Shown here: one piece after another, positions 12,936 to 41,402 of the stretch | Layout of the letters: every line of letters begins with the position of its first letter | How positions within the stretch are numbered: position 1 is the first letter of the stretch | Source of the DNA: a virus | Taxonomy: Duplodnaviria; Heunggongvirae; Uroviricota; Caudoviricetes | IMG/VR virus record: IMGVR_UViG_3300021255_000114 | Location: 231,942-295,941 of that record | Length of the DNA: 64,000 nucleotides | Strand: one strand, 5' to 3' | Made by a program: the position numbers and the translations under genes | The notes under the pieces: generated by a model | Databases searched by the model: none | Told to the model about the DNA's origin: nothing | The model's input: only the letters and a program-made list of their open reading frames with translations

Positions 12936-13292
12936 TTATTTATACATTCCTTCAGGTGCTTCAAGTGCAAGGCCTTTTTCTATTAAGCCACGGTAGTCAA
13001 AATAGTGTTCGTTGAGCCAATCAACATAGGACGGAATAAGCAAACTGATTCCACTTTTATCAGGAATATATCTAGGGTTTTCCTTTATTTTGTCAAACTC
13101 AACCATTTCGTCATTCGTCATACTTGACATTGGACGAAGGTAAGGTTTACAATTATCTATACACGGATGATAATCGAACGTATAGATAGTAGGGCTATCG
13201 TCAAGAGACTCACGATTTTCTTTAACGAAAATCCCGTAAGTTAACCTTGAACAAAGGTCTTTCAACAACAGTTCTTTTTCTTCTTGTTTCAT
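12936..13292 (-). CDS. member of the six-copy small-protein family
   Basis: Same conserved termini as 12532..12924. Confidence 0.6.
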   Translation of the reverse strand: MKQEEKELLLKDLCSRLTYGIFVKENRESLDDSPTIYTFDYHPCIDNCKPYLRPMSSMTNDEMVEFDKIKENPRYIPDKSGISLLIPSYVDWLNEHYFDYRGLIEKGLALEAPEGMYK

Positions 13293-13936
13293 AATTCTAT
13301 TTCTTTTTCCTTCTTATAGTTATCCGTCTTTATTTCAATCAAAGACTGTAACCTCTCCTTATGCTTTTCAGCCTGAGGTGTTCCAGCAAAATTATAGTAA
13401 TTGAAAAGTATCACCAACATCTCGTCCGTCACCTTGCAATCGGGATATGAATAATAAACATTGGCCGTTAAAAAGTTAGCCTTGGATTTGAAGTGCATGC
13501 GCGACTTATTGTCGAAATCTCTCCAATACACTTCACGACCGTTGATGATGATAGAAAATTCGTTATGCACGAATTTCTGTATGGTCATAAGCCTCTGCTT
13601 TCCGTCGATGACGAGGTTGACCTGGTCGTCTCGATTGGCGTAGTCCTTTATTTCCTGCACAATAACCAAACTGTCAATAGGTTTCTCGAGCAGAATGGAC
13701 ATAATGAATTCACGCTGCTGGACAAGTTCCCACACGTAGGGACGCTGAAGGTTGATGCCGTATGTAGGTAAATAGACATCGAAATCATATATCTTATCCC
13801 CAGGGCCCGGATTGTCCAATGTATCAACAAGACGAAAATCCAAAAGAACCCCCTTGTTAAGATGGATTTCCTTGGGAATTCTATGTAAATTGTTACATTG
13901 TTTTATCTCGTCTAACAAACTCATATCTTTTTTCAT
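13289..13936 (-). CDS. DUF262 domain protein (ParB/GmrSD N-terminal-like)
   Basis: LQRPYVW matches the (F/L)QRxYVW motif and LVIDGKQRLMTI matches DGQQR. Confidence 0.6.
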   Translation of the reverse strand: MKKDMSLLDEIKQCNNLHRIPKEIHLNKGVLLDFRLVDTLDNPGPGDKIYDFDVYLPTYGINLQRPYVWELVQQREFIMSILLEKPIDSLVIVQEIKDYANRDDQVNLVIDGKQRLMTIQKFVHNEFSIIINGREVYWRDFDNKSRMHFKSKANFLTANVYYSYPDCKVTDEMLVILFNYYNFAGTPQAEKHKERLQSLIEIKTDNYKKEKEIEL

Positions 13937-15123: not shown

Positions 15124-16119
15124 CTAAAATTTACGTTTGATAATGTCAGCGGACAACTTGTTCACTGTTTTATTCACTGCTTTCTGCTCATTAGGCGACA
15201 GTTCATTGTACTCAGGGTGATCCTTGACAAATTCCTCAATTACGTCAGCGCAGTACTCCTTGATAAGCAGCCCAAACTGCTTCGGCATTTCAAGTTCACC
15301 AAGATGGCTCATGACGTTGCCAAGTCTCGACTCGGTTACATAGTCCCCCACGCATGAAACAAGCTTGCTGCATGTATCCGAATACACGACATCGGCCTTC
15401 TTATCTGATTTCTCAAACTCATTGAACTTCGGGTTCTTGTTCTTGATGATGATTCGTTCACCATTGGCAAAACGAAGGTCGGAAACGGGTTTGATGACCA
15501 CACCTTCGGCAAAGTTATTCTCGATTCTTGGATAACCAAGACGCTTCCCAATGGTGCTGATGAACACGGGATTGTAAGCAAGACACTCATCAAGCGTTCC
15601 ACGGAACAACTCCTTGTTATAGAAGAAGCCGTACTTCTCGAACAAATCGATACATTCGTCAACACCAAGATACATGGTTTTGTCCGGATATGTCACAAGG
15701 ATGTCGAAAGCGTAGAATTCGTGGTTCGGGGTATACTGAATAGCCTTCTGAATTTTTGGTACATTAGACTCGTATCCATCATATCCACCACCGAACAACT
15801 CTCCGAAAACCTGAACCGAAATAATGGAGTTATCACCGCATTTCAATTTATTGAATACTGAAATGACTTTCTCCTTAAGGTTCTGGTCGGCAAACTCCTG
15901 AAACCCGTAGAATTTGTCGGAATCGGTGAGGACGGAACTACGCTTGCCGGTAACAATTGACATACCGTCGGTAATAACCGAGACATTACAACCGTCAACC
16001 TTCTCAGAAACGGAAAAAAGCATATTGGGACAGCCTAAAAAATTAAGCGACTCTCGTACCTTTTCGATGAAGGGCTCCCTGTAACTGTTCTCAATAGAAC
16101 TGTATTTCTTAAATTCCAT
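15124..16119 (-). CDS. rnl2: RNA ligase, T4 Rnl2-like
   Basis: N-terminus MEFKKYSSIENSYREPFIEKV compares with T4 Rnl2 [27 protein letters not shown] fits motif I. Length about 330 aa. Confidence 0.8.
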   Translation of the reverse strand: MEFKKYSSIENSYREPFIEKVRESLNFLGCPNMLFSVSEKVDGCNVSVITDGMSIVTGKRSSVLTDSDKFYGFQEFADQNLKEKVISVFNKLKCGDNSIISVQVFGELFGGGYDGYESNVPKIQKAIQYTPNHEFYAFDILVTYPDKTMYLGVDECIDLFEKYGFFYNKELFRGTLDECLAYNPVFISTIGKRLGYPRIENNFAEGVVIKPVSDLRFANGERIIIKNKNPKFNEFEKSDKKADVVYSDTCSKLVSCVGDYVTESRLGNVMSHLGELEMPKQFGLLIKEYCADVIEEFVKDHPEYNELSPNEQKAVNKTVNKLSADIIKRKF

Positions 16120-18175: not shown

Positions 18176-19042
18176 TCAGACATCCTGTTCCCCTCCTGTA
18201 TATTGATCACCGTCGGTGCAAGTGATACATCCTTTGGAATTTGTGCATGTCGAGCAAGACAGGGCATCCGTATACTCATAGAAGCAAGGGTAATCACTTG
18301 GATGTGGAATTTCCTTACGCTTGAATCCGGATTTCAGGAACATGCTTACCATCTTCTCCTGTTTCTCATTAAGTTCATATAGATGGGGTGGATAGAGATT
18401 GCCATACGTTTTATTATAGAACTCCTCAAATTCCTTATAGGTGAAGCCGAATTTTTCTTCATCCGACGAACCGGTAAGACCGTCTGAAGGTGTTTTTTTC
18501 ACAAGGTATTCGGGCAATCCCAATGCAAGTCCGAGTTCAATAACCTCCGAAACATGCATATTGATGATAGGCTCGACATCGGCTACAGAATCGCCCCATC
18601 TTGTGCAGAATCCAAGCAAATATTCATCAAGATTTGATGTTCCGATTACACGACCGTTCACTGATTGGGAAACAGCATATAATGTAGACATACGGAGTCT
18701 CGGGCCGAGGTTGATCTTGGTCTGTTCGCTTGCCTTTATTCCCTGGCTCTGCATCTGCATGATGATGTTGGAATACGCCATCTGCATGTTTACCTCAACG
18801 TATTTGATTCCAAGATGACGGCATACGGCGTAACTGTCAGTAATGTCATTCTGCTCCCCGTTAGGCATAAGCACACCGATAACACGGTCTTTGCCAAGTG
18901 CCTCAACGCACAGTGCGGCTACCACTGTCGAATCTTTTCCAGCTGAAATTCCGATAACCGCTTTACACCCATCACCATTTATTTCAAACCATTCCCTAAT
19001 CCACGTTATCAGATAATCTTTGTAACGTTCAATTTTTGTCAT
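18176..19042 (-). CDS. nadE: NH3-dependent NAD+ synthetase
   Basis: GISAGKDS reads as the PP-loop; NLDEYLLGF, RWGD, TPSDGL and FGFTYKEFEEF match NadE blocks. Confidence 0.85.
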   Translation of the reverse strand: MTKIERYKDYLITWIREWFEINGDGCKAVIGISAGKDSTVVAALCVEALGKDRVIGVLMPNGEQNDITDSYAVCRHLGIKYVEVNMQMAYSNIIMQMQSQGIKASEQTKINLGPRLRMSTLYAVSQSVNGRVIGTSNLDEYLLGFCTRWGDSVADVEPIINMHVSEVIELGLALGLPEYLVKKTPSDGLTGSSDEEKFGFTYKEFEEFYNKTYGNLYPPHLYELNEKQEKMVSMFLKSGFKRKEIPHPSDYPCFYEYTDALSCSTCTNSKGCITCTDGDQYTGGEQDV

Positions 19043-20373
19043 TTTTTTCTTATCTTTTTTAAAATGTTTAAAATATCTTTAATAATACTTTTACTATTAT
19101 ATTTTATATAAAATAGCGGAACATTATTTATTTCACATTTATATTTTTTGTTTTCGTCTAATTCAATAATATGTTTATATCTATTAAACGCCCATTCATA
19201 TCCATAGCCGGCAAAATCTACCGGAAAATAATGTTGTTCACCTTGACACTCAATTGCAATGTTATATTCTGGTAAATAAAAGTCAAGATGTTGCAATTCT
19301 AACCATGGTAAATGTTTACTTGTGGCAGGATGAATAAATTTAATTAATAGTTTATTAAGTAATAATGAGGTTGTTTCTTCTAATTGCGATTGTCTACACT
19401 TAGGACAGCCCTGTTTTCTTTTGGTGTGATGGTATGGTGTTTGCCAGAATTCTCCGTGTTCCGGACAGATAATACATACAGGTATATCTGTGTTTATGTA
19501 TTTTACTTTGGAGTAATCATACCTGTCTCCGTGGACTTTTCGCGCCTTTTCCATAAACTCTTCTTTACTTAACTTACGATTCCCATAACAATCTGGGCAA
19601 CCTTTACCTTTTAGATGGTTCGAAGGTGTTTGACAGAACTCACCATGTTCCGGACAGATAATACAAACTTTAGTTTTAACATTTACATAATCAGTTTTTG
19701 AATAATCATATCTGTCTCCATGTACTTTACGTGCTTTCTCAATAAATTCTTCGGTGTTTGATCGGTTTGTGCCTGCACATTTTGGACATCCGTTTCCATG
19801 TAAATGTAACCCTAATTGTTGTATAAAATCTCCGTGTATCGGGCAAGTTATGATAATTTTATCTTTAGCCTTTGCTTCCGTTACTTTATTATAGTTATAT
19901 TTACCACCGTGTGTTTTAACACATCTTTTAATTATTTCTTCTTTTGTTAAAACATATCTTTCACTAGTTTTCTCTAAAGCGCATTTTGGGCATCCGTTTC
20001 CATTTAAATGCGAATTCGGGGTTTGTAGAAAATCTCCGTGTTTTTTGCAAATAATAGTTAACTTTTTGTTGGTTAGAGAATAATTTGCTTTTGAATAGTC
20101 ATACTTATCTCCATGCACTTTTTTAGCTTTTTCAATGAATTCATCATTAGATAATGAACGTTTTGATGATTGTACAATACGAGAACAATTAGGACAACCT
20201 TTACCTTTTAAATGATCAGCAGGTCTTTGCCAGAATTCTCCATGTTCCGGACAGATGATACAAACCTTAGTATGATTGTTAACATAGTTTACATTACCGT
20301 AATCATATTTATTCCCGTGTACTTTTCTACTTTTCTCTTCAAAATTTCTGTTTTTATTACATTGTTCGCACAT
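19039..20373 (-). CDS. zinc-ribbon repeat protein (about six DUF4379-like units) with a C-terminal restriction-endonuclease-fold (D..ExQ) domain
   Basis: Repeated unit KVCIICPEHGEF.Q.P..HLKGKGCP.C. C-terminal FDFYLPEYNIAIECQGEQHY. Paralog of 1..1262. Confidence 0.7.
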   Translation of the reverse strand: MCEQCNKNRNFEEKSRKVHGNKYDYGNVNYVNNHTKVCIICPEHGEFWQRPADHLKGKGCPNCSRIVQSSKRSLSNDEFIEKAKKVHGDKYDYSKANYSLTNKKLTIICKKHGDFLQTPNSHLNGNGCPKCALEKTSERYVLTKEEIIKRCVKTHGGKYNYNKVTEAKAKDKIIITCPIHGDFIQQLGLHLHGNGCPKCAGTNRSNTEEFIEKARKVHGDRYDYSKTDYVNVKTKVCIICPEHGEFCQTPSNHLKGKGCPDCYGNRKLSKEEFMEKARKVHGDRYDYSKVKYINTDIPVCIICPEHGEFWQTPYHHTKRKQGCPKCRQSQLEETTSLLLNKLLIKFIHPATSKHLPWLELQHLDFYLPEYNIAIECQGEQHYFPVDFAGYGYEWAFNRYKHIIELDENKKYKCEINNVPLFYIKYNSKSIIKDILNILKKIRKK

Positions 20374-20387
20374 TTATGTTAAATTAA

Positions 20388-20568
20388 CTCAATTATTTTC
20401 GTCTATTTCATAAGGCAAATTTTCCCAGTATTTTTTCATGGATTCCGATATTTTCTTTTTGGTCTCTTCATCCATTTTCTTGCCATAACGATGATTTTTT
20501 GCACCAAGTTTGGCTTGACGCATTTTTTCCTTTGTTTCCTCGCTTAATTTCCTTTGGGTTCTTGCCAT
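20388..20568 (-). CDS. small NUMOD3-like DNA-binding protein (59 aa)
   Basis: Unlisted ORF MARTQRKLSEETKEKMRQAKLGAKNHRYGKKMDEETKKKISESMKK; LS.ETK.K...AK.G repeats of this kind occur in homing-endonuclease DNA-binding modules. Confidence 0.35.
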
Positions 20569-20610
20569 TGTACTTTATTGAACTTTATTTAACTATAAAT
20601 ATGTAGTAAA

Positions 20611-22116
20611 TTAGAAATCTGGATGCAAACGATTACGGATTTCGGTAAGTGATTGTTCCTGAACCATTTTACCATCTTTGAAGTAGAGTATGTAAGCCGA
20701 ATCCTCACCATGAAGAGGTTCGCGTTCCGTTGGGTCAATTCCATCAGCAAATTTAAACATACCCGTTTCAGGGTCATTCCAAACTTCACAGCACCCACGC
20801 TGACTTTTTTTGAACGAAAAACCGGATTCACGATCAGTCTTTGGATCTTTAAAAATTGGATAGAATTTCCCATCAACAATACCTCCAGTTGCTTTAATTG
20901 CGATTGAAAAAGTGTCACGAGTTAATGGATGGAAACAATTATTAGTATCTTTATAACACGTAAAACTAAATGAACCGGCACCGAAGTATATGTTATTTGC
21001 GGCAAAGCCTTCAAGCATTAAACGTTTATATATGGTAGCAGAAATGCTCGGTAATACTCCGTCCCCGTAAACCACACCAATATGCGGGTCAAGGACTTTA
21101 TAACCCTTGGTATTGACGGTTCCACCAAAGATATTCCAAAGCGATTCAACGGTCTTAACTGAAATATCGATAATATCACCACTATCGGGACGGATAAGCA
21201 GTTTGCCGTTATGGGCAAGGATTTCGTCTTTAAGCGACGGAATAATATCATTCACCATTCGCCAATAATCGTAAGTATCTGATACCATGGAGAATGAAGC
21301 ATTTGGATATACTTCTGTAAGAAGGCGTTTCACCATTGCCCGTTCATCACCTGTAATGGCGAAGTCAGCGGCCATAACACTGTGCTCAGTACTGATAGCG
21401 TTTGTAGCAAAATTATTCTCGCTGTTATTCTCGTTATAGTAGTGTTCGATGTATTTGACGGCGGGAATAGTAGCTGTTCCGCTGAATGAAGCAAGCCATG
21501 CGGCTGAAGCCTTCTCAGCCTCCTGAAGCGAACTCATGCCACGGAAACCGAAATCGGAAATGGCTTTGCTATGCGGAACATTATCGTCCACTGTTTTACC
21601 GTACCATTCATCAACAACATCACGGTAGATATTACCTACGGTGGCATGGATGCAGGGTTTCCAGAGTTCAGACGACAAAAGGCTCTCCACCCACTGTACA
21701 ACCCAGGCGAAATCAGGGTGCGTGTTCGTAATTTCGATGCACGGGATACCCATGTTTACAACGGAACCCTCAGGTAATGCGCGGATTTCAAGCGGCAGAT
21801 AACCTAAGCGATGCAGATCACGTACTTTTTCAGGGTTGTAATTACCCGCGCCGAACATGCTATCAACCACACGGGTGTACTCTTCCATCATTTCATCCTC
21901 AGGGACGCTGAAGAAATTCTCGTTGAAATGGTCGATAAGGTATTTCTTGATGAATCCCTGCAAACCGAAAAAGACCATCTTGTCCAACTCAGGTATACGG
22001 TTTCTGCGAGGGGTGAAATAAGACCAAAGTTTAGTCAAACCTTTTGGGTACTGTTCCGCATGGGTTTGCTTGTAACCGTCTGACAATAAGAGACTTATAG
22101 TTTCGTGATTTTTCAT
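20611..22116 (-). CDS. nadV: nicotinamide phosphoribosyltransferase (Nampt)
   Basis: SDGYKQTHAEQYP, DFGFRG, IRPDSGD, VYGDGV and YFGAGS align with human and bacterial Nampt. Confidence 0.9.
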   Translation of the reverse strand: MKNHETISLLLSDGYKQTHAEQYPKGLTKLWSYFTPRRNRIPELDKMVFFGLQGFIKKYLIDHFNENFFSVPEDEMMEEYTRVVDSMFGAGNYNPEKVRDLHRLGYLPLEIRALPEGSVVNMGIPCIEITNTHPDFAWVVQWVESLLSSELWKPCIHATVGNIYRDVVDEWYGKTVDDNVPHSKAISDFGFRGMSSLQEAEKASAAWLASFSGTATIPAVKYIEHYYNENNSENNFATNAISTEHSVMAADFAITGDERAMVKRLLTEVYPNASFSMVSDTYDYWRMVNDIIPSLKDEILAHNGKLLIRPDSGDIIDISVKTVESLWNIFGGTVNTKGYKVLDPHIGVVYGDGVLPSISATIYKRLMLEGFAANNIYFGAGSFSFTCYKDTNNCFHPLTRDTFSIAIKATGGIVDGKFYPIFKDPKTDRESGFSFKKSQRGCCEVWNDPETGMFKFADGIDPTEREPLHGEDSAYILYFKDGKMVQEQSLTEIRNRLHPDF

Positions 22117-24394: not shown

Positions 24395-25234
24395 TTATTC
24401 GGAAGAAATGTTTGAAATTTTTTTAAGAAAATCCTTTTTTACCTCTTTTTCCGTAAACTGACCGGCCGGTGATACCACCCATTTATTACGTTCAAACGTA
24501 CCGTATTCAGGTGATTCCAATTGAATTTTCTGTTTATAGCATACACGACCGAATTTCAACCCATCATCATATTCATACCAATTGATATTGCATTTGTCAA
24601 GTAGGAGTTGCACTTGTTCATCACTGTGTTTGCTCACTAGTTCCTTATGGGGAAGGTATGTTTGCGCCGCCTGTTGTTTGGAATTGCGGATGCAGTCCAA
24701 CTGGCGATATAGGAACCAAGCATACGCATCGTTCTCGTTAGGCACATTCCATGCCTTGCAGTCGAATTCATACAGCGGAGCATTCTCAAGTGTATCAATC
24801 GCCATATCAAGGATATCGTTACCGGGAAGAGAATCAGGAATCTTCTCGAGTCTGTTCGCAGTCATAATGTTGGTGAATTTGGTTGCGGCCATTGATGCGA
24901 CAATAGACTGAATTTTGCATAATCTGTATCCGAAAAATGATGTGACCTCGGAATTTTCGTCTTTCGGAATATCGGATACGACAAGTGAAATCTCGTCACT
25001 TTGACAATAGCCGAACTTGCACCCTTGTACATTGGCACACAGGTATTGCATTGTCTCGTTCATTGCCTCGACGAACTTCTTGTCGAACGGTTTTTCGAAT
25101 TTGTTCTTGATTTTCCTTGAGAAATTCTTTCCATCGACCATTATACAAATATAACTGTTAGGTTCAAGCCTGTGGTCTGATGCCGAACGGAGTCGTTCGC
25201 ATTTCTGTTTAAGTGTTTCCTCTATTTTTTGCAT
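24395..25234 (-). CDS. Thg1-like protein (tRNA-His guanylyltransferase family, 3'-5' polymerase)
   Basis: IMVDGKNFSRK...KPFD compares with Thg1 VVRLDGRNFHRF...KPND, and YCQSDEISLV with YGQSDEYSFV. Confidence 0.75.
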   Translation of the reverse strand: MQKIEETLKQKCERLRSASDHRLEPNSYICIMVDGKNFSRKIKNKFEKPFDKKFVEAMNETMQYLCANVQGCKFGYCQSDEISLVVSDIPKDENSEVTSFFGYRLCKIQSIVASMAATKFTNIMTANRLEKIPDSLPGNDILDMAIDTLENAPLYEFDCKAWNVPNENDAYAWFLYRQLDCIRNSKQQAAQTYLPHKELVSKHSDEQVQLLLDKCNINWYEYDDGLKFGRVCYKQKIQLESPEYGTFERNKWVVSPAGQFTEKEVKKDFLKKISNISSE

Positions 25235-25247
25235 TTTCTTCTATATA

Positions 25248-25913
25248 TTAATGAGTTGTATATTTTGCTGCCACTTTTTTGACAACTTTTAAGTATTCAT
25301 CCGCTTCGGCATAATTGAGATGTGCCTTGAGGTAGGTTTCTTTGTCCGGTTTTACTTCGTTGAAACGGAAGTGTTCCCACAGTATTTTGTCCAATATGGA
25401 AAGTTTCCAATTGTCATAAACCGCATAACCACAATAGCTATCGCCATGGCGTTGGGTCGTGTAATGTTTCCTTTTACCTGATACAGGTCTCATCCCGAAG
25501 AAATTCCTCGCATTTTTCGCAACATCGGATGTACCGCTTGTGGATTCGATTTTGTACTGTGCCATGATGATGTCCGGATACCAAGCCTTGCAACTTACGA
25601 TATATGCAAAAACAATACTGTCATTGAACGGGATATTCTTCTTTCCCTCCAATGTTGCCTGTGCTATACGGATATGAAGTGTGTCGGATTCTTCCTCCAT
25701 TTCAACGGTTCTTGTCAGTATCTCAATCTGTGCCTCCAAAGTACTGATGATTTTATCCTGTTTAAGACTCTCATCAATCCACAGAATAAGCACAATGGAG
25801 AACACACTCAAGACCAAGTACAATGCATTGTCATACAAAAACTGCTTGATTCGTGAAACTGGCTTCAGTTCGATGTTTTCTTTATCGAACCGGTATAAAC
25901 GGTTATTTTCCAT
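25248..25913 (-). CDS. peptidoglycan hydrolase (glucosaminidase family) with an N-terminal transmembrane anchor
   Basis: Hydrophobic segment LYLVLSVFSIVLILWI, and AQYKIESTSGTSDVAKNARNFFGMR matches the glucosaminidase domain pattern. Confidence 0.6.
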   Translation of the reverse strand: MENNRLYRFDKENIELKPVSRIKQFLYDNALYLVLSVFSIVLILWIDESLKQDKIISTLEAQIEILTRTVEMEEESDTLHIRIAQATLEGKKNIPFNDSIVFAYIVSCKAWYPDIIMAQYKIESTSGTSDVAKNARNFFGMRPVSGKRKHYTTQRHGDSYCGYAVYDNWKLSILDKILWEHFRFNEVKPDKETYLKAHLNYAEADEYLKVVKKVAAKYTTH

Positions 25914-25914: not shown

Positions 25915-27105
25915 TTACTTGAATAATTTGATGTTCGATTCGTTTGAATCGTTGTAGTAGAAATTCTTGAAATGTATGTCGAAACAACTCGATATCATCG
26001 TCATTGCTGACTGCATCCCATATGGTTGCGTTAGGTCAACGGTTTCGGTAAAGCATCCGTTATACATTTCCAGAAATCCATGATTAATAGCCACATCCAT
26101 ATGAGTGACAACAAGGTTGAAATCAGCAAGACCTTTCTTGTCGATATAGTCTAACCTATGGCGGTCAACGGCCCGCTCGAACAAACGACGCTCCAACTGG
26201 CCGACTTTGAAATTCCCCTGGTATTCATTGAATACATTGGTTTCGTGTTTGTCCGATAAATCATAAGTTAACGGTGCCTGAGGAATATATCCGTTTCCGT
26301 GCCGTGTAAGATATGTACGGGTAACCATATAGACTTCAGGCTTGATATTAAACTCATAGTGCTCCATGAACTCAAGCGGATTCTCAAGGCCGACCGGTGT
26401 GGCTGTCACATTCGGGAAAAAGCCGTCCTTGGCGTCAAGCAGCAATCCTTGTGTACCCTCAAAGATAACCACGTCATGTGACCTAATCTCGTCAATCATC
26501 ATTAGGCGATTTTTCCATACCTTATAGAACTTAGCGTTGCAGGCCTCAACATACATCCTCTCAAGCTCGGGATTGCGCTCCATTCCATAGTAATCACATA
26601 CGCTTTGGAACTGTTTCTCCTTGTGCTTGTACGTCAGAAATTGCGAGAAGGTATATAGGAAATAGTCGCTTGACATGTGGCGTTTCTTGCATGCCCACAC
26701 CCCCTTGCCACATGTCCCGTCCTTTAACGCAGATTCATCATTACGGTTTGAAATCACATCATATGGGGTAATGCATTCGATGTAGTCCGCAATATTGATA
26801 AGCGGTACACTATCCATCTTTGTTTGAAGAACCTTATATTCATTGTATGCACAGATAGGGTCAAAAAGAGAACCGTAGATATAATACGTCGGAACCCCCA
26901 ACAGGACACCACTCCCATACGAAGAACAGATGTGTTCAACCCCGTCGTTTACAACCGTGTGCGCAGCCTGAGGCCCCCCACAATAACGCACAACACACAC
27001 CGACTTGCCTTTCTCGATGGCCTCTCTGCAAAGCCATTGCACTGTCACTCCCTTACCTTCATCGCCAAATAAAGACCCGATTACTATTTTAACCTCTTTT
27101 TCCAT
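25915..27105 (-). CDS. adenylosuccinate synthetase family protein (PurA or PurZ-like)
   Basis: GSLFGDEGKGV reads as the PurA P-loop, and RYCGGPQAAHTV compares with the canonical RYQGGHNAGHT block. Confidence 0.8.
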   Translation of the reverse strand: MEKEVKIVIGSLFGDEGKGVTVQWLCREAIEKGKSVCVVRYCGGPQAAHTVVNDGVEHICSSYGSGVLLGVPTYYIYGSLFDPICAYNEYKVLQTKMDSVPLINIADYIECITPYDVISNRNDESALKDGTCGKGVWACKKRHMSSDYFLYTFSQFLTYKHKEKQFQSVCDYYGMERNPELERMYVEACNAKFYKVWKNRLMMIDEIRSHDVVIFEGTQGLLLDAKDGFFPNVTATPVGLENPLEFMEHYEFNIKPEVYMVTRTYLTRHGNGYIPQAPLTYDLSDKHETNVFNEYQGNFKVGQLERRLFERAVDRHRLDYIDKKGLADFNLVVTHMDVAINHGFLEMYNGCFTETVDLTQPYGMQSAMTMISSCFDIHFKNFYYNDSNESNIKLFK

Positions 27106-31585: not shown

Positions 31586-32410
31586 TTATTTGCCAAGATT
31601 GATGAATGGGACACTATTACCCATCATATACTGTGGAAGTTTACCATCCCACTGCGTAACTGCTTGCCATTCAACAAGTTTCTGATTCTGTGCAAGGGCA
31701 TTCGCCTTGATACGCATGGCCTCTGCTTCAGCCTCGGCAGCAATCCTGGTTTGCTTGGCCTTCTCCTCAACCTGAATGGTAACATTTTTGGCTTTGAGTG
31801 CTTGCTGCTCAGCAACCTGTTTATCCTTGATGGCCTTCTCGAAATCATCGTCGAAATCGATATCCGTCAGTTGGAACTGAATGTTCATGAAATAGTTGCT
31901 GTCAAGGGTGTTTCGAAGCATCTTCTCAATCTCACGACGGACATCGTCACGATTCTCGACGATTTCTGTTGCAGCGAAATTACCGAAAGCTTCTTTCATG
32001 GCTGAACGGATAAACGGAACCACAATACGGTTGTGATAGTCCTCGCCAACATTGCGCATAAGACCACTGACATTCTCGCGAACAAGGTCATAGTTGATGG
32101 TGTAGTCAACTGTGGAAGTCTGCACGTCACGTGTGTAACTGTTCTCCTGACCGTCGAACTTCTTCTGCTGAATGTTTACCTTCTTCACGCTCTGGATGAA
32201 GGGCCACTTGAAATGAAGACCGTCGCCGACAACCTCACTGTTCATTTTACCGAAGGTGGAAATGACACCGCGCTCGGTCGATTTAATTGTGTACGTGGAG
32301 CCGAAGATAAGAATCAGCGCGACAAGGCCGATAACGCTCCACTTGATAACTTTTGGCATAAAATTCTCGTTGTTGTTCATTTTTATTTTATTTGTTTTAA
32401 CGTTTAACAA
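31586..32410 (-). CDS. SPFH/band-7 (prohibitin/HflC-like) membrane protein
   Basis: An N-terminal transmembrane segment is followed by ERGVISTFGK..., and the C-terminus is an Ala/Glu-rich coiled coil (QQALKAKN...AEAEAEAMRIKA). Confidence 0.7.
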   Translation of the reverse strand: MLNVKTNKIKMNNNENFMPKVIKWSVIGLVALILIFGSTYTIKSTERGVISTFGKMNSEVVGDGLHFKWPFIQSVKKVNIQQKKFDGQENSYTRDVQTSTVDYTINYDLVRENVSGLMRNVGEDYHNRIVVPFIRSAMKEAFGNFAATEIVENRDDVRREIEKMLRNTLDSNYFMNIQFQLTDIDFDDDFEKAIKDKQVAEQQALKAKNVTIQVEEKAKQTRIAAEAEAEAMRIKANALAQNQKLVEWQAVTQWDGKLPQYMMGNSVPFINLGK

Positions 32411-33005
32411 TCTTTAAAATACCGTTTTTGGTCTTAATGAAGTAGATACCTGAGTTGAAACCGGTTAAATCAACAAATTTTGCGTTTAAACCACTAATAA
32501 TCGGGCGACCGCATTCATCATAAACATAGAATTCGTCAATTGGTTTACTGAAACGAACAATACCCGTGGTAGGATTAGGATAGGCCTTGATATTCTCCAT
32601 ATGGGCCTCGGTTATAGAATTGGGCTCCATGAAATAAGCGGTAGCCATCACGCTGTCATATCCGCAATCGGTAACGTCGATAAGGTTGAAATCGGAATAG
32701 ACGGTGTCGCATACATTGGTGTCGGAATTAAACCACTCGTTAATCCAATAGGTAAAGAGCACCCCATCCGCAGGAACGGCGACAAGGAACCACTGATTGT
32801 CATTGTACACAGTATCGACATTGCTAATGGTGTCGACTGCATCACCCACAGTATCATATACAACAACGGTGTCGTAATGGACTACTGGATGTATGACATC
32901 GATACTACCCATGGTAGAGTCCATGACACACCAATTCACAATTGTCTGCGCGTTGGCAAACCCGGCCACAATCATAGCGGCCATCATAAACATAAACTTC
33001 TTCAT
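32397..33005 (-). CDS. secreted protein with a T9SS C-terminal sorting domain
   Basis: Signal peptide MKKFMFMMAAMIVAGFANAQ. C-terminus YPNPTTGIVRF...VYDECGRPI...DLTGFNSGIYFIKTKNGILKIVKR. Confidence 0.75.
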   Translation of the reverse strand: MKKFMFMMAAMIVAGFANAQTIVNWCVMDSTMGSIDVIHPVVHYDTVVVYDTVGDAVDTISNVDTVYNDNQWFLVAVPADGVLFTYWINEWFNSDTNVCDTVYSDFNLIDVTDCGYDSVMATAYFMEPNSITEAHMENIKAYPNPTTGIVRFSKPIDEFYVYDECGRPIISGLNAKFVDLTGFNSGIYFIKTKNGILKIVKR

Positions 33006-34582: not shown

Positions 34583-36862
34583 TTATTTTTTCATTAATCC
34601 GTGTTCGGGGTCATAGGCATAAAGGCATGTTATAAAGGGTGTTTCGCTTGACAAAGCAAGTCTCCAGTACATATCAAACAATTTCGACCATCTTGGTCCC
34701 TGTTTGTTTTTTCTGTACCCTCTCGCAGATTTGTGACGGTATTTTTCTTGAAGTTCCGGGTGTTTATCTATATAATCATACATATACCGTGTTTCTCCAT
34801 CCCTAAACAGATTCTCGTCCAAATAATTGGCTATGATTGGTTCCTTCATCCTATCAGCAATTATGAAACGTTGGTTGTTTGGGTTTCCTCTTAAAGTTTG
34901 CCTTTGACTTATCCGCTTAATGTTATCGTCGCCCTTTGATGAATACAGGTATACCATATTGTGCAGGACCTTCTGTGATTCTTTTTTGCATTCATCGCTG
35001 TATTTTTCATATTCTTTTTTATAGGACGAATCATTGTATATCGCTTCGAACAAGGCAACTATTTCCGATTCATTATATACTTTTTCAAACACAACATTCT
35101 CCATGAACAACCGACGTCCAAGTAAACACAAACCGTGGTTGTATTTAGCGCGAACAGCCGCATACTCCGAGTTGTCAAAACCGAGCTTTTTGTTCGTGTC
35201 AAACGGGAGTATGTATATGTTGGCCACTTTTTCTCCACCCCAACGGTTAACACGCCCCAAACCCTGTTGGAATTCGTGCATCGGAAGATAGGCATCAGTA
35301 TAGAAATTATTCGCTGATATATCATGGCCGGTGGTTACCAGGTTTGTACAAACCATCACACCTTCTTCATTCCTGTTTTTTGAGAAATGGCGATACATAT
35401 CGGTAATATGCTTATTCATATCATGAGTGGTGTAATTGCTATGGCATAGCACGGTATTATTTTTGGTGTTTTTGGCTTTAACACCGTCATAGAGTTTTTG
35501 GGACGTTTTTACACCGTTAACCATTGCGATGGAATTATTCTCCATAGACAAATCAAACGTCTCGAGTTGATGGAAGATATAACGTTTATCCTGCGCACCT
35601 TTATAATGCCTCGGCTCAGTGTATACATGCCTTTTAAATGATTTATACAAGAGCGATTGCGGTGTTGCGCTGCAAAGTATTGTTTTTGCATTATAGTTTA
35701 ACCTTGACAAATTCATTAATTGGAATGCGCGATTACACCCGCTTCTATCCATATATGTATGATATTCGTCAAAAGCAACCGTACGGACCATAACCTCGAA
35801 GGCCATTTCCTTCATGTCATTGTCCCTTATAAAGGGATTGAAGAAATTATCTATGTTTGTGACGATTATATCGTTGTTAACATTATCCTTCAATCCTTGA
35901 ACCCAACCTCCTCCTTTTTTATAATATAAACCTAGTGTTATCTTAATATTATACACTTTTAAAAGATTGGCCAATGAACCATAAAGCGCATCACAAAGGT
36001 TGTCTGTGGGGCAGACGAACATCGCCTTTTTACCTATGGCAAGTACACTACGAAGCAGGATGTCGGTTTTCCCGAATCCGGTATTCTCGTTTATTTCGAA
36101 TATGTGAAAATTGGAATTGGCAATTTTTCCCACATATTCGCTTTGAATATTGAAACGGTATGAATCATATCCGTCGGGCTTTTGTATGTCGGAAACACCA
36201 AAAGTAACAGGCAGTTTCAAACCATTGTCCATAAATGTATCGTCAATGATGTAATCCCGGTCCGATTTTGCAATTAAAGCAAACAGCGTTTGATACGGCA
36301 CATCCTTTATATCACTTTTCGCAACATCATCCTGAAACAGATACAAGCATTCGTCTGAAAAGGTGGTGTCAGTTTCTGAGATATTATTTACCTCCAACTG
36401 GAAATCGGGATTCTTCCTATTGTTGATTTCAACCAATTCATGTATAACAGGCAATATTGCAGATTCCTCGGTCTTTATTTTTTTAAGTGCCGAATCAATC
36501 TTGAACGACAACCCGCAATAAGGATGATGTCCCAACAACACTCGCATGACCGTGGAATACATCAACCTGACTGAATTCATCTGCGCATAATCACAATTGG
36601 CCTTTGGTTTTATGTAAAGCCAAAATATCAAGGCACTTGAAACATTGTGCAGCACCTCAGGTGTTTCATCGTTTTTCAAATAAGCCTGAAACTCGTTCAT
36701 TATCTTTCCAAGGTCATGGAACAATCCTACCGTATATGCACATTTACGCCACGTTTCATTGGTAATATATTTTCCCGCAAGGAATTTGCAGTTGTCAGCA
36801 ACCGTTGTGGAATGCTCCATAAACGATATAACCGGCTTTGTTTTTGCTATCAGTTCTTTCAT
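34583..36862 (-). CDS. cas3: Cas3 HD nuclease-helicase
   Basis: HD-domain residues MEHS...LFHDLGK...GHH. Helicase Walker A NTGFGKTD. DExH box AFDEYHTY. Motif VI QQGLGRVNR. Confidence 0.85.
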   Translation of the reverse strand: MKELIAKTKPVISFMEHSTTVADNCKFLAGKYITNETWRKCAYTVGLFHDLGKIMNEFQAYLKNDETPEVLHNVSSALIFWLYIKPKANCDYAQMNSVRLMYSTVMRVLLGHHPYCGLSFKIDSALKKIKTEESAILPVIHELVEINNRKNPDFQLEVNNISETDTTFSDECLYLFQDDVAKSDIKDVPYQTLFALIAKSDRDYIIDDTFMDNGLKLPVTFGVSDIQKPDGYDSYRFNIQSEYVGKIANSNFHIFEINENTGFGKTDILLRSVLAIGKKAMFVCPTDNLCDALYGSLANLLKVYNIKITLGLYYKKGGGWVQGLKDNVNNDIIVTNIDNFFNPFIRDNDMKEMAFEVMVRTVAFDEYHTYMDRSGCNRAFQLMNLSRLNYNAKTILCSATPQSLLYKSFKRHVYTEPRHYKGAQDKRYIFHQLETFDLSMENNSIAMVNGVKTSQKLYDGVKAKNTKNNTVLCHSNYTTHDMNKHITDMYRHFSKNRNEEGVMVCTNLVTTGHDISANNFYTDAYLPMHEFQQGLGRVNRWGGEKVANIYILPFDTNKKLGFDNSEYAAVRAKYNHGLCLLGRRLFMENVVFEKVYNESEIVALFEAIYNDSSYKKEYEKYSDECKKESQKVLHNMVYLYSSKGDDNIKRISQRQTLRGNPNNQRFIIADRMKEPIIANYLDENLFRDGETRYMYDYIDKHPELQEKYRHKSARGYRKNKQGPRWSKLFDMYWRLALSSETPFITCLYAYDPEHGLMKK

Positions 36863-36901
36863 GGTGTAAATATACTATTTTGAATTGAAATATTGCTTGA
36901 A

Positions 36902-37660
36902 ATTTTTAATCAAATAAAATTATATTATTAAAGAGTAGTTGTTATCACTATGTAAAATGGTACGTAATTGTTAATCAATTGGAAATTATATTATTAAATA
37001 GTTGTATGCCCTACAAAGCATTGATTCCATAAAATTGTTAATTGAATAAAGATTGTATTATTAAAGAGTTGACTTGATAGCAATGATGACATCCCATAGA
37101 TTGTTAATCAATTAAAAATCATATTATTAAAGAGTCTCGTGTTGCTTCGTTCACTGCCTGGTCCCATTGTTAATCAAATAGAAATTATATTATTAAACAG
37201 TAGGCTGTGGTAGTTATGCCAATGGCAGTATATTGTTAATCAATTAAAAATCGTATTATTAAACAGTAATAACGGTGAACTTGTGGAAGCTGTAGAATTG
37301 TTAATCAATTAAAAATCGTATTATTAAACAGTCGGTGGGAAGATTTGGGGCGCGTTTCAAAATTGTTAATCAATTAAAAATCGTATTATTAAACAGTGTT
37401 AACGGTATAAGCGTTATATCATACGCATTGTTAATCAATTAAAAATCGTATTATTAAACAGTTCGCTTAATGAACAAATTCAATAAACTAAAATTGTTAA
37501 TCAATTAAAAATCGTATTATTAAACAGTGGTGCGCTTACCCTATGCAACTCCCTTCTTATTGTTAATCAATTAAAAATCGTATTATTAAACAGTTGTTAA
37601 CGGCATTTCCGTGATTAGTTACGCATTGTTAATCAATTAAAAATCGTATTATTAAACAGT
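36902..37660 (-). CRISPR. CRISPR array with 12 repeats of 36 bp (plus strand ATTGTTAATCAATTAAAAATCGTATTATTAAACAGT) and 11 spacers of 29-31 bp
   Basis: Seven perfect repeats (37232-37660) sit at the cas6-proximal end. Five progressively degenerate repeats (36902-37201) sit at the cas3-proximal end. A 62-bp AT-rich leader lies at 37661-37722. Read on the minus strand the repeat starts ACTGTTTAAT, which resembles type I-B repeats. Confidence 0.9.
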
Positions 37661-37722
37661 ACACTCCTTATAAAGCATTGTATTTATGTGCCTTACAAAG
37701 AGTTTTATATTTAAAAAATGCA

Positions 37723-38439
37723 TTAAACACCACCAAATGTGAATTTTTGAGTCATATTTTTCCTTTCTAATACTTCAATAGCGCCGAAACCGCTTCCGGT
37801 TGACCCCCCGATTCCAAGACTATAAAGAAGTTTTCTTGTCTTTGGCTTGCCATAAACCGTGGCAACAAACGATGTGCAAGGATTGAATACATCACCAACG
37901 AATATGTTTTTAACTTTAATATTCTCCGGTTTATTGAATTCAATTCTGAAAGTTTCATCAAGAATACCATTATTGGATAATTTCCTTTTGCAATGCTCAG
38001 TAAGCACTGTCTCCCATCCTTCATCACGGTATGTTATTTTCCTTCCGTCTTTTATAAGCAATACCGGTGACAAAGTCTTAATCACGTCATACGTTTTTCC
38101 CACCTTGCTATCGTCCTCGCACACTATATGTGTAACTCTTCTCCCGAATAAAACCTTGTTTTTACTATTGATGCTTTTGATAACCCCAGCAACAATTCGG
38201 TTGGTGATATCGTCCGAAGCACTTGAAACTTGGATATAAGGATTCATAACGGGTACAAGGCATTTCTTATCATTGGATGCTACAAGGCCCTGCAACCCTG
38301 AAATGGAATACGGGCTGAAACTCGAATGGATTCCTTCATCCCTATCAAACAGGTGGTTGTAGATGAAACCGTTTACTTCACGCTGATTCTTGAACGGGAT
38401 GCTATCCCCATCCTTTTCGAATATAATTTTAACTATCAT
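37723..38439 (-). CDS. cas6: Cas6 crRNA endoribonuclease
   Basis: 238 aa with the C-terminal glycine-rich loop GIGGSTGSGFG (GhGx5GhG), located directly next to the array leader. Confidence 0.8.
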   Translation of the reverse strand: MIVKIIFEKDGDSIPFKNQREVNGFIYNHLFDRDEGIHSSFSPYSISGLQGLVASNDKKCLVPVMNPYIQVSSASDDITNRIVAGVIKSINSKNKVLFGRRVTHIVCEDDSKVGKTYDVIKTLSPVLLIKDGRKITYRDEGWETVLTEHCKRKLSNNGILDETFRIEFNKPENIKVKNIFVGDVFNPCTSFVATVYGKPKTRKLLYSLGIGGSTGSGFGAIEVLERKNMTQKFTFGGV

Positions 38440-39529
38440 GTTTTATTGTTTCGTTTAGTTTGTCAAACACTTCGTTGTTGAACGTAGGAACGTCGGTGCA
38501 TACATAACGCATACTGCAATACCCATAACTCTCAATCTGATCTTCACTTAGTAAATCATATGGTAGCAGCACATCATCCACACCATATTCAGACCATTTA
38601 AGCACATCAACAATTCCACCCTCAAGGAACCTTGCGGTTTGCATGCCGGTAATAAATTGTTCCACATATTCCTCGTTTAGTTTGAATACGAATTCCCCGT
38701 TAAGGATTATGACTTTCTGTGGATAACCCTTCTCCGTCTTGATAAACGGGCCCGTGAGTTCAGAGCGGTAAGTTGTTCCGTTGACGAAATTCAATAGATT
38801 GGCATTTTTCAGATATTCCATCACCTTGACAGCGTTTACCTGCATCGCAGCCGAAATTGCAAACGTAAGCGTGGCATATTCTCTCGCATTCCGGCCGGTT
38901 ATTTCTGATATAAGCGAAACCAAACCATCCATTGCACCCTGTTTCTTTGAATTGCAACGAAGGTATCGCATATCAAACTGCTCCCAACAAACAGTGTCTA
39001 TGGAATTATTTGAAATCGTGCTATCATTGTTTGTTGCATGGTAATTCGCGAAATGCCCGTAAGACCACTTAACAACTTCGGTGTTCGGTCGTTTCAAACC
39101 GGTTTTACATGTGTGGAAATACGGGGCATACAATCCAACAAACCCATCAAGAACCATTTCGTCGATATCGGCATTTCTTTTGGCACCCTCCGGACCGTGA
39201 AACGTTGATACCGGTTTTTTCTGTAGCATTACGGCATACATATTGGATGCGGTATGAAGGGTGAAGGGATACAAAATATTCCCCTCCACCTTGTCCACAT
39301 CCTTCATATCATACCACAAAATTGAATCAGGTGAACATTTATCACGCATACCCTTCTCACCTGTGTATTTGTTATATACAATATCAAATTTATATGATTT
39401 AGGTTTAGATGATTTCTTTGGTTTATCTTCCGTTACCACATTGTTTTCATCCGATTCACGCTTCCTTATCTTATCATAATAAGGCAATTTGGCATTCTCA
39501 AACCTTAGTCTTACCCAATAATCATTCAT
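38429..39529 (-). CDS. putative Cascade subunit (Cas5/Cas7-family candidate)
   Basis: 366-aa gene in the cas operon, overlapping its neighbours by 4 and 11 nt. No diagnostic motif was recognised. Confidence 0.45.
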   Translation of the reverse strand: MNDYWVRLRFENAKLPYYDKIRKRESDENNVVTEDKPKKSSKPKSYKFDIVYNKYTGEKGMRDKCSPDSILWYDMKDVDKVEGNILYPFTLHTASNMYAVMLQKKPVSTFHGPEGAKRNADIDEMVLDGFVGLYAPYFHTCKTGLKRPNTEVVKWSYGHFANYHATNNDSTISNNSIDTVCWEQFDMRYLRCNSKKQGAMDGLVSLISEITGRNAREYATLTFAISAAMQVNAVKVMEYLKNANLLNFVNGTTYRSELTGPFIKTEKGYPQKVIILNGEFVFKLNEEYVEQFITGMQTARFLEGGIVDVLKWSEYGVDDVLLPYDLLSEDQIESYGYCSMRYVCTDVPTFNNEVFDKLNETIKHDS

Positions 39530-40536
39530 TTTTCCTTTTTATTGTTCTTAGCCTTTTTATTGGCTGTGTCGGAACATGCGTTGTTGTAAGGCGCGTAATC
39601 CTCAAGCGAAGCCTCGTTATAGAATTTCTTGTATTCAAAATTGATGCTCTCCACATCTTTCAATGTAATGTTCTCGAGCACATCCTTCGTGTTATCCTCG
39701 TAATGAATGATCAAGTCCATGCCAAGGAAATCAATCGACCCATTGCTATGACGTTCACCATTAAACATAATGAACTGCGACAGAATATATCTGACCTGTT
39801 GGTTAATCATATCGTCAGTCAGCATGAATGCCATATCGACTTCTTTGTTGCCGGTATGATTGCCAATCCTGTAATACGGTTTAATACAAGTCTTATCAAT
39901 CGAAGTGTTGAAATTCTTCGATAAACAAGTGAAATAATAGTCCATATCATTATCGTTCTTGAATTCAACAGCCATTTTTTGATGGCCGCCGTCAACGTAG
40001 ACAATCTGCATATCCGGGATGGAGAACATGAACCTGCCTTCATAGGTATATTCGCCAACATTCTCCACCGCATAGAGCGTGTTGTCTTTACCGGCGCCAT
40101 CGGTCTTTTTAATACCACTCATGGTTTTGGTTTCAAATGGAACGTGTTTAATGGGTTCCATATTGGCAACCAAAGGAAAGAGTTCATATCCTCCCTTTCG
40201 ATGACCCTCGTATGCAGAATCACCGTCTTGCTTAGTATAGAGGTAGCCCTTTGCAAGAATATAGGGGTCAGCCAAATGGCTTAAATACATTTCTCTGAAT
40301 TTCGTGCACTGATTGAATGTGCAACTCCCAAAAACAGCCTGATTGATTGCCTCGGCGCTGATCTTGTATTTGAAACCATCACCAACAAGCATTTTCTTAC
40401 AGTAGACTACGTTTTTATTAATGTTTTTTGTCCACTTGTAAACGTTTGCAGTATCACCGGCAAACTCGCCATCACAATTGAAAGCTCCACTGCCACTAAA
40501 TTTTACGCGGCCCTCAAGTTTAATTATTTTTTTCAT
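39526..40536 (-). CDS. putative Cascade backbone subunit (Cas7-like candidate)
   Basis: 336 aa with an ATGA overlap to the downstream gene, so likely translationally coupled. Confidence 0.45.
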   Translation of the reverse strand: MKKIIKLEGRVKFSGSGAFNCDGEFAGDTANVYKWTKNINKNVVYCKKMLVGDGFKYKISAEAINQAVFGSCTFNQCTKFREMYLSHLADPYILAKGYLYTKQDGDSAYEGHRKGGYELFPLVANMEPIKHVPFETKTMSGIKKTDGAGKDNTLYAVENVGEYTYEGRFMFSIPDMQIVYVDGGHQKMAVEFKNDNDMDYYFTCLSKNFNTSIDKTCIKPYYRIGNHTGNKEVDMAFMLTDDMINQQVRYILSQFIMFNGERHSNGSIDFLGMDLIIHYEDNTKDVLENITLKDVESINFEYKKFYNEASLEDYAPYNNACSDTANKKAKNNKKEK

Positions 40537-40555
40537 TTTTTATTTTTATTTACAT

Positions 40556-40948
40556 TTAATTCAATTGTTCGTACAGTTTCTTGTACATCTTATCCGGATC
40601 ATCCAACCATTCGTCGGCAATAATCTTTATCTTCTTGGTGATACCCAATTCGAGACTGCCTTTGAATGGTATATCATTCTCATCCAACAACAACCATTCG
40701 AAACAATTACTCACATAGGAATCAAATATGATATATTGAACCAAAACATATGGGATGCCAAATGAAATGCATTTCTTCTCGATGAGTTGCCTGTCAAACG
40801 AAACATCGTAGATATCAATACAGACTCCGGCAAAAACATCCCAAGAAAGACTCAATCTATGCAAATAACGTTCAACGAACTCCACAAGCATGTCATTAAC
40901 GGAAGGTCCCTCCCATCCTAAAAGTAAACTGTAATCCGTCTTTTTCAT
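40556..40948 (-). CDS. hypothetical protein in the cas operon (candidate small subunit)
   Basis: 130-aa ORF. Confidence 0.4.
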   Translation of the reverse strand: MKKTDYSLLLGWEGPSVNDMLVEFVERYLHRLSLSWDVFAGVCIDIYDVSFDRQLIEKKCISFGIPYVLVQYIIFDSYVSNCFEWLLLDENDIPFKGSLELGITKKIKIIADEWLDDPDKMYKKLYEQLN

Positions 40949-40975
40949 TTTTTTTTACAATTTAAAATTCCCTAT

Positions 40976-41401
40976 TCAATATTTGCATCTTTTAATCAAT
41001 ATTTTCTCTTCGTCGGTCGCATAACGATATGTATAGCCAGATTCATGCGTCAAGACCTCTGGTTCGCATTGAATAAAACCGCATCCACTGTTAATCATTA
41101 AGCATTTAGGCTTGAAATCCATTTCTCCTTTATAATCATCGGGCATGATAAAGAGTGCTGGAAAAACATCATCGTTTTCAAACGAATAAACAACATCACC
41201 CGGTTTAAAACCACATGGAGTATTAAAAACCTTCGCTTCAAAAACAGGAACAATTTTTCCATTCCCCTTTGGTTCAAACTGCTCAATATAAGGAATAATC
41301 TCCTTGGATGCGCTTTCACGTTTGGGATATTCAATCTTCGGGTCGTTAATGTATGCACAAACAATTTCGTGCAGAAGATTCCATTTTTCTCTTTCGTCCA
41401 T
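40976..41401 (-). CDS. hypothetical protein in the cas operon (candidate small subunit, Cas11-like position)
   Basis: Start reassigned to the internal Met so that TAA-C-ATG abuts the stop of the upstream gene. Confidence 0.4.
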   Translation of the reverse strand: MDEREKWNLLHEIVCAYINDPKIEYPKRESASKEIIPYIEQFEPKGNGKIVPVFEAKVFNTPCGFKPGDVVYSFENDDVFPALFIMPDDYKGEMDFKPKCLMINSGCGFIQCEPEVLTHESGYTYRYATDEEKILIKRCKY

Positions 41402-41402
41402 G

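Follow-up and report, generated by a model that had tools for sequence, protein, structure and literature searches.

The stretch of viral DNA analysed here, 64,000 nucleotides of IMG/VR record IMGVR_UViG_3300021255_000114 (hereafter, the window), encodes an intact Thg1-like protein (TLP). We think it probable that this protein is a template-dependent 3'-5' polymerase that restores the nucleotides missing from tRNA 5' ends, including G-1 of tRNA-His, as one part of a tRNA maintenance kit; we infer both that tRNA is its substrate and that repair is its role. Genes of this kind are already catalogued in large phages as a part of RNA repair, and the annotation is an expected one. The sole element that may be new is the rewiring, across a whole subfamily of TLPs, of the site that holds the incoming nucleoside triphosphate (NTP). 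The argument turns on the following features:

24395-25234, minus strand: TLP gene of the huge-phage subfamily, an intact open reading frame (ORF) from ATG to stop, 279 amino acids
25187-25189, minus strand: codon of R16, at the site of E12 in the Bacillus thuringiensis TLP (BtTLP); putative relocated arginine
25139-25141, minus strand: codon of M32, at the site of the near-universal 'RxDG' arginine (BtTLP R28, yeast Thg1 R27)
25133-25135, minus strand: codon of D34, the first metal-binding carboxylate (BtTLP D30, human Thg1 D29) in the alignment to 4kgk
24992-25000, minus strand: codons of S79-D80-E81 (BtTLP S74-D75-E76), the activation-step serine and the second and third carboxylates
24467-24547, minus strand: predicted C-terminal beta-hairpin, residues 230-256, from DSSP of the AlphaFold2 model; R230 and R249 are invariant

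The family assignment is supported at several levels. In a Pfam search, residues 19-165 match the Thg1 profile PF04446 with 87.3 bits (E=1.1e-24; gathering cutoff 29.2 bits), and PHROG 4717, 'tRNA-His guanylyltransferase', is matched with E=2.6e-50. The top match in a search of PDB sequences is BtTLP (4kgk/4kgm, E=6e-24), followed by weaker matches to the archaeal TLP 5axk (E=4e-7) and to the eukaryotic Thg1 proteins of Candida (1.7e-6), human (1.4e-4 to 1.7e-4) and yeast (1e-2). No match to the Thg1C domain was found in the 279-residue protein, PF04446 being the sole Pfam match at E<=1. Because BtTLP scores far above the eukaryotic proteins and Thg1C is unmatched, the sequence places the protein with the TLP type and not with eukaryotic Thg1. 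Moreover, an AlphaFold2 model built on 37 aligned relatives, which are 45-91% identical to the query, is confident (pLDDT 89, pTM 0.87), and Foldseek matches it to 4kgm with E=3e-19 and a target-normalised TM of 0.83-0.86. The 32 top PDB matches of the model are all Thg1 or TLP structures (E from 2.8e-19 to 3.7e-12), the next one falling at E=0.03, and the modelled fold is the polymerase-palm-like one common to the solved members of the family. Thus, the membership in the Thg1/TLP family proposed in the original prediction is borne out by PF04446, PHROG 4717, 4kgk and the fold matches, which go well past anything that chance would give. The motif blocks on which it had been based were approximate: they read MVDGKNF (residues 32-38), KPFD (48-51) and CQSDE (77-81), not LDGRNF, KPND and GQSDE.

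The catalytic residues of the family are in place. Their roles have been established in BtTLP and in yeast and human Thg1, where the human carboxylates D29/D76/E77 correspond to BtTLP D30/D75/E76 (PMC3701042). We took residue equivalences from a phmmer alignment to 4kgk, in the numbering of Hyde et al. 2013 (PMC3701042), in which BtTLP D30, D75 and E76 align with D34, D80 and E81 of the phage protein, S74 with S79, K99 with K107 and R147 with R177. Across the 37 relatives D34, S79, D80, E81, K107, R177, D180 and N184 are invariant, and the 29 invariant columns of that alignment include every catalytic residue. The loss of metal-binding Asp or Glu residues, named beforehand as the observation that would speak against the prediction, is not seen: the three carboxylates are kept in 37/37 relatives and in 133 of 135 diverse representatives (full-length proteins, one per 50%-identity cluster). 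As for the activation-step set (yeast K44, S76 and N161; BtTLP K43, S74 and M158), S79 is invariant in the clade, K48 aligns with BtTLP K43 at a position where the clade varies (K, L, R or Q), and position 188 is a glutamine, where BtTLP has M158 and yeast Thg1 N161. Purifying selection on the gene is strong, and its product apparently is, to judge from these residues, a catalytically competent 3'-5' RNA polymerase.

The incoming-NTP site is where the phage protein departs from the family. In BtTLP the triphosphate is held by R28 of the 'RxDG' motif, K99', R131 and R16', with E12 forming salt bridges to R28 and R131; the R27/R28 arginine contacts the alpha-phosphate, and nucleotidyl transfer suffers strongly when it is changed to alanine (PMC3701042). 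Aligned with BtTLP, the phage protein carries M32 for R28, R16 for E12, K160 for R131, D20 for R16' and R104 for N96. When the nucleotidyl-transfer residues are compared (yeast R27, K96 and R133; BtTLP R28, K99 and R131), K107 is kept as the equivalent of K96/K99 and R131/R133 is conservatively replaced by K160; the set is incomplete in that M32 replaces the R27/R28 arginine. The changes are coupled. Among the 135 representatives, positions 16 and 32 read E/R in 65, R/M in 48 and Q/H in 10, while E/M or R/R never occurs; the 69 proteins with a residue other than arginine at position 32 have K160 in 60 cases, R104 in 67 and an acidic residue at position 20 in 55. The two positions switch together, and the site appears to hold about as many basic and acidic residues in either case. 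Since the changes are coupled and the charge count seems to be kept, we infer that the site has been compensated, with R16/M32/R104/K160 standing where E/R/N/R would be, the arginine relocated and nucleotidyl transfer retained.

This arrangement is seen mostly on phage contigs. It is shared by the TLP of the Prevotella phage Lak-A1, and the canonical E...RxDG arrangement is kept in those of Bacillus phage BCP78 and Fusobacterium phage Fnu1. In species-representative bacterial and archaeal genomes, 78 of the 80 best matches keep the arginine, and the single cellular R/M case among them lies on a 47-kb contig of a metagenome-assembled genome (45% identity). By contrast, a residue other than arginine is found in 16/16 IMG/VR loci at >=43% identity, most of them on contigs of 127-393 kb. 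By its distribution, the R/M (or Q/H) subfamily is almost confined to phage contigs. The R16/M32 subfamily therein is a natural experiment in rebuilding the incoming-nucleotide site of a reverse-direction polymerase.

How would such an enzyme act? It would bind a tRNA that has lost one or a few nucleotides from its 5' acceptor strand, or a tRNA-His lacking G-1; ATP or GTP would activate the tRNA 5' phosphate, and the missing nucleotides would then be added singly, with the 3' strand copied, until the beta-hairpin no longer reached the tRNA elbow. In the TLP of Methanosarcina acetivorans (MaTLP), a beta-hairpin with a conserved arginine (R215) grips the elbow and measures the acceptor stem (PMC4820378). 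Hairpin 230-256 of the model is likely the counterpart of this element (MaTLP R198-R215), judged by its position and not by direct alignment, and the predicted C-terminal hairpin with its arginine would imply anticodon-independent tRNA binding that measures the acceptor stem. The partners in the kit would be two ligases encoded in the window, together with a CCA-adding enzyme, RlaP and a kinase-phosphatase encoded by related phages. The two ligases are:

15124-16119, minus strand: Rnl2-family RNA ligase, 331 amino acids (PF09414, E=2e-19; PF18043, T4_Rnl2_C, E=2e-16)
5283-5963, minus strand: short RNA-ligase-like nucleotidyltransferase, 226 amino acids, without the C-terminal domain (PF09414, E=1.5e-7; PHROG 548, E=4e-15)

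The first of these, about 8 kb from the TLP gene, is the Rnl2-like ligase that had been claimed for the same genome, and the claim is confirmed: it matches PHROG 548 with E=1.5e-62, has the KxDG motif in 'EKVDGCN' and matches TIGR02307 over its full length with 181.8 bits, slightly below the 197-bit equivalog cutoff. The short ligase gene has a 4-nt overlap with the stop end of a 528-residue radical-SAM gene (5960-7546) and is 61% identical to a gene of Lak-A1, being thus better conserved between both phages than the TLP.

In one relative the TLP gene belongs to a clear RNA-repair cluster. On a 388-kb contig (L010, TLP 47% identical), an HD+AAA_33 kinase-like gene, a CCA-adding enzyme, RlaP, a short RNA ligase and then the TLP lie within 10 kb. 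A tblastn survey of 84 viral TLP loci (+/-10 kb) found a CCA-adding homologue near the TLP in 16, RlaP in 14, NAMPT in 13 and the short ligase in 5, the last all of the huge-phage subfamily. Lak-A1 encodes the TLP, the short ligase, the CCA-adding enzyme, RlaP and NAMPT, but dispersed. RNA-repair genes are absent from the TLP neighbourhoods of BCP78 and Fnu1, and the neighbourhood in locus L009 shares little with the window. The repair-gene neighbours in relatives support a role in tRNA-end maintenance, and the counts agree with the published assignment of jumbo-phage Thg1 to RNA repair (PMC7824862). If the enzyme is active, 5'-end rebuilding joins the tools with which huge gut phages maintain tRNAs (ligases, CCA-adding enzyme, RlaP and tRNAs of their own), and it would be relevant to the resistance of these phages to a growing list of tRNA-targeting defences.

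Several observations weigh against this role in tRNA 5'-end repair. With M32 in place of R27/R28, full polymerase activity is not guaranteed, and no biochemical study of any phage TLP was found in the literature searched. Next to the gene lie a glucosaminidase, an adenylosuccinate synthetase and NAD-salvage genes, and none of its immediate neighbours belongs to RNA repair; the 64-kb window holds no tRNA gene, and no end-healing kinase or phosphatase was found among the roughly 50 window ORFs scanned with Pfam. The neighbourhood counts over the 84 loci come without a background control. Finally, the anti-phage tRNases in the literature searched cut in the anticodon loop or stem, the D or T loop, the 3' acceptor strand (retron Eco2) or the CCA tail (Cas12a3), and none that trims tRNA 5' ends was found there; the damage to be repaired is therefore hypothetical. 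As to the other repair genes, neither RlaP nor a CCA-adding enzyme was found among the same scanned ORFs, and no complete T4-type (Pnkp plus Rnl) healing-and-sealing set was found among them; an end-healing kinase or phosphatase may lie elsewhere on the 373-kb contig. A search of the window for Rfam families gave no match.

The original prediction had tied the enzyme to tRNA-cleaving defences of the PrrC and RloC kind, and this part is not supported. A TLP fills in 5' nucleotides of the acceptor stem opposite its 3' strand, and the anticodon loop is beyond its repair; mending that loop is the job of ligases. The link to anticodon nucleases is a mechanistic misfit, as the TLP needs the 3' acceptor strand as its template, and is weak because the enzyme cannot mend an anticodon loop.

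The rewired site could also mean that the chemistry or the substrate has changed, the enzyme either adenylylating or guanylylating 5' ends (as activation or as a cap-like modification) without efficient extension, or acting on RNAs other than tRNA. We find this quite unlikely. The exchange of the alpha-phosphate-contacting arginine for M32 speaks for it, given the strongly impaired alanine mutant described above, but the coupled changes keep the basic and acidic count, a pattern typical of compensation rather than loss. Similarly, the replacement of R131 by K160 and the glutamine at position 188, where BtTLP has methionine and yeast Thg1 asparagine, would fit altered chemistry, while K107 (yeast K96), R177 and the three carboxylates are retained, as are the predicted elbow-binding hairpin and its arginines. 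The near confinement of the R16/M32 subfamily to phage contigs and the presence of NAMPT <=10 kb from the gene in 13/84 viral loci, in both TLP subfamilies, would also be in keeping with a changed reaction. It is far harder to believe that the gene is inactive or a merely hitch-hiking accessory with no role in infection. Its sporadic distribution in phages and variable synteny are what a hitch-hiker would show, but the ORF is intact, 29 columns including every catalytic residue are invariant among relatives 45-91% identical, and the same protein sequence recurs in several independent samples. No relaxed selection or disrupted copies were seen in the close relatives. Ten longer members of the clade (338-476 amino acids), looked at for fusion partners as a clue to function, carry no Pfam domain besides Thg1.

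A further alternative is that the TLP is a dedicated tRNA-His maturation enzyme, adding G-1 opposite C73 on phage or host tRNA-His for charging by histidyl-tRNA synthetase during infection. Bacterial and archaeal TLPs can perform this addition, and MaTLP has a second, tRNA-His-specific binding mode (PMC4820378). Phage annotations also name the family tRNA-His guanylyltransferase, but the protein is TLP-like and not Thg1-like, and a tRNA-His gene lies <=10 kb from the TLP in 0/84 viral loci (any tRNA in 13/84). Moreover, 13 TLP-bearing phages infect Caulobacter, whose group of alphaproteobacteria is reported to lack G-1 on tRNA-His. We examined this alternative in the whole 541,643-bp genome of Lak-A1, the only complete genome available with the same TLP subfamily. 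It has 32 tRNA genes, and its one tRNA-His(GUG) is the sole one with a badly formed acceptor stem, which would speak for an enzyme devoted to this tRNA. However, the gene encodes both G-1 and C73, so G-1 addition is not required in Lak-A1, and RNase P could retain G-1 as it does in bacteria. On balance, we regard a dedicated G-1 enzyme as unlikely. The gene in question is:

L013 8471-8544 (Lak-A1 108271-108344): tRNA-His(GUG) gene of Lak-A1; also in L022, L023, L024 and L025

The acceptor stem of this tRNA-His is slipped by one nucleotide. Its 5' strand GGUC-CGU faces the 3' strand ACGUGACC, and positions -1 to 3 pair with 73-70, while 4-6 pair with 68-66 only if U69 is bulged. The Rfam tRNA model aligns with positions 8-63 only (31.7 bits), whereas six of the seven neighbouring Lak-A1 tRNA genes score 49-68 bits over their full length and the seventh 38.9 bits. 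The remaining 31 tRNA genes of Lak-A1 have nearly all clean stems, a few with a single terminal mismatch. The odd acceptor strands are identical in Lak-A1, C1, B1 and B2 despite diverged flanks, in the anticodon stem a G:C pair is exchanged for A:T by compensatory change, and the slipped stem is also invariant in a 190-kb IMG/VR contig. Pattern searches of IMG/VR returned no more diverged copies of it; only Lak-like contigs share the odd stem, and the other tRNA-His genes retrieved look normal. Amoebozoan mitochondrial TLPs rebuild tRNA 5' acceptor strands, and because the slipped stem of the Lak tRNA-His is conserved, it is tempting to speculate about a viral counterpart. It is very unlikely, in our estimate, that the huge-phage subfamily, in which the arginine has shifted to the N-terminal helix from the RxDG strand, is a functionally distinct 3'-5' polymerase with altered nucleotide handling, or that it edits tRNA 5' ends for the virus by rebuilding the 5' acceptor strand of the phage's tRNAs. 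If such editing did occur, the mature Lak tRNA-His would have the 5' strand GGUCACGU and not the encoded GGUC-CGU.

Two other features of the Lak-A1 tRNA genes can be recorded here. In 31/32 of them a C, and after it usually an A or T, follows the discriminator base, and the CCA tail is therefore not fully encoded. In addition, there are two tRNA(CUA) genes and one suppressor-like tRNA(UUA) gene; stop-codon recoding is known in Lak phages, which fits these suppressor-like tRNAs.

Returning to the repair enzyme and its distribution, a Thg1-like homologue is present in 155 of 50,697 phage records, among them Bastille-like phages of Bacillus, phage G, phages of Caulobacter, Mycobacterium, Erwinia and Fusobacterium, and Lak phages; in IMG/VR more than 590 stretches have a TLP homologue, and giant eukaryotic viruses also carry Thg1-like genes. 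The gene of Bacillus phage Bc431v3 was remarked on in 2013, and a jumbo-phage survey of 2021 described Thg1 as a sporadic, 5'-end-restoring enzyme of the RNA-repair repertoire (PMC7824862). That Thg1-family genes are uncommon in phages therefore holds as a proportion but was overstated, as the family has its own PHROG, is found in those many IMG/VR stretches and has been noted for years.

The window belongs to a metagenomic contig of 373,160 bp, and an identical TLP protein occurs in several other samples. The phage context assumed at the outset is supported: the contig is large, and the closest TLPs in phage records are those of Prevotella Lak megaphages (48-49% identity). The label 'Lak-like phage' was considered for the window and rejected, as only 5 of its 104 ORFs match the Lak-A1 genome; by gene content, the source is a huge phage different from Lak. 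When 10 kb of the window were compared with phage records by megablast, nothing matched. Nearly all genes of the window lie on the minus strand, and several ORFs of no assigned function are among the immediate neighbours of the TLP gene. Those with an assignment, and an ORF bearing on the host, are:

25248-25913: glucosaminidase, immediate neighbour of the TLP gene
25915-27105: adenylosuccinate synthetase-like gene, 396 amino acids, with a Pfam match on the N-terminal two thirds only; two genes upstream of the TLP gene
20611-22116: NAMPT
18176-19042: NAD synthase NadE
32397-33005: ORF of 202 amino acids with a Por_Secre_tail (type IX secretion sorting) domain at its end (E=2.5e-6)

The last of these domains suggests a Bacteroidota host. 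The arrangement of glucosaminidase, adenylosuccinate synthetase, NadE and NAMPT is shared by locus L008, and the adenylosuccinate synthetase gene, kept near the TLP there, is also found <=10 kb from it in several other viral loci. The NAD+ salvage genes of the window span 18176-22116, with a DUF723/zinc-finger protein between NAMPT and NadE, and L008 adds to them an isochorismatase-like gene, probably a nicotinamidase. Phage NAD-reconstitution pathways counter NAD-depleting defences, and these genes resemble such pathways. NAMPT lies near the TLP in L138-L140, L144, L147, L150, L151, L173, L188, L191, L008 and L123, among others, and this proximity (13/84, both subfamilies, without a background control) may mark accessory or counter-defence islands.

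The window also carries a phage-borne CRISPR-Cas locus (34583-42578) and further elements:

34583-36862: Cas3 (HD and helicase)
about 36900-37670: CRISPR array, 12 copies of the 36-nt repeat ATTGTTAATCAATTAAAAATCGTATTATTAAACAGT with a period of 65-67
37723-38439: Cas6
42829-42887 and 43425-43483: diverged direct repeats, 59 nt at 78% identity
43057-43651: three-copy family of a 29-nt repeat
13289-13936: ORF of 215 amino acids with a GmrSD restriction endonuclease N-terminal (DUF262-like) domain (E=1.5e-14)
147-1262 (plus strand) and 19039-20373 (minus strand): paralogous-looking proteins with DUF723 and treble-clef zinc-finger (DUF4379) domains

Five unannotated ORFs follow Cas6 up to 42578, one of which (39526-40536) faintly resembles Cas7fv; the five probably encode Cascade subunits. 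Neither Cas1 nor Cas2 was seen at this locus. The diverged 59-nt and 29-nt repeats sit at the starts of successive small minus-strand ORFs, which suggests that small paralogous genes form a tandem family there, downstream of the Cas genes. The GmrSD-like ORF could be a phage-borne nuclease or anti-competitor gene. A small NUMOD3 ORF in the contig annotation adjoins 19039-20373, and the DUF723/DUF4379 genes are possibly homing-endonuclease-like selfish elements inserted among metabolic genes.

Among known systems, BtTLP (4KGK/4KGM; Hyde et al. 2013, PMC3701042) is the best match of the phage protein in sequence (E=6e-24) and in fold (E=3e-19). Both have the palm-like catalytic core and lack the Thg1C signature, and they differ in that BtTLP is a cellular enzyme, identity in the Foldseek structural alignments is about 25-28%, and the phage-encoded protein has an insertion of about 18 residues (132-150) forming an extra helix, a further C-terminal helix (263-273) and Q188 in place of M158. 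The canonical phage TLPs of PHROG 4717 (BCP78, Bc431v3 gp143 and Fnu1) belong to the same family, likewise reside in large phages and are about 34-35% identical over 81% of the query; they are annotated 'tRNA-His guanylyltransferase' and keep E...RxDG...R, whereas the protein of the window belongs to the R/M (or Q/H) subfamily. The TLP-tRNA complexes of M. acetivorans (5AXK-5AXN; Kimura et al. 2016, PMC4820378) match in fold (Foldseek E of about 1e-12 to 1e-14), while the sequence match is restricted to residues 29-105 in the N-terminal part of the phage protein; the MaTLP residue in contact with the 5'-end nucleotide, R136, has K160 as its equivalent. Eukaryotic Thg1 (human 3OTB, Candida 3WBZ, yeast 5XOX) shares the catalytic core and the two-metal carboxylates, but the similarity is much weaker and its Thg1C domain is unmatched in the phage protein. 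The eukaryotic enzyme needs no template to add G-1 opposite A73, and it recognises the His anticodon. Finally, as in the RNA-repair repertoire of jumbo phages (Iyer et al. 2021, PMC7824862) and the T4 Pnkp/Rnl system, an Rnl2-family ligase co-occurs here with an end-restoring nucleotidyltransferase; in contrast to those systems, the kinase-phosphatase, RlaP and the CCA-adding enzyme were not found in the 64-kb window, and it is in relatives that they neighbour the TLP.

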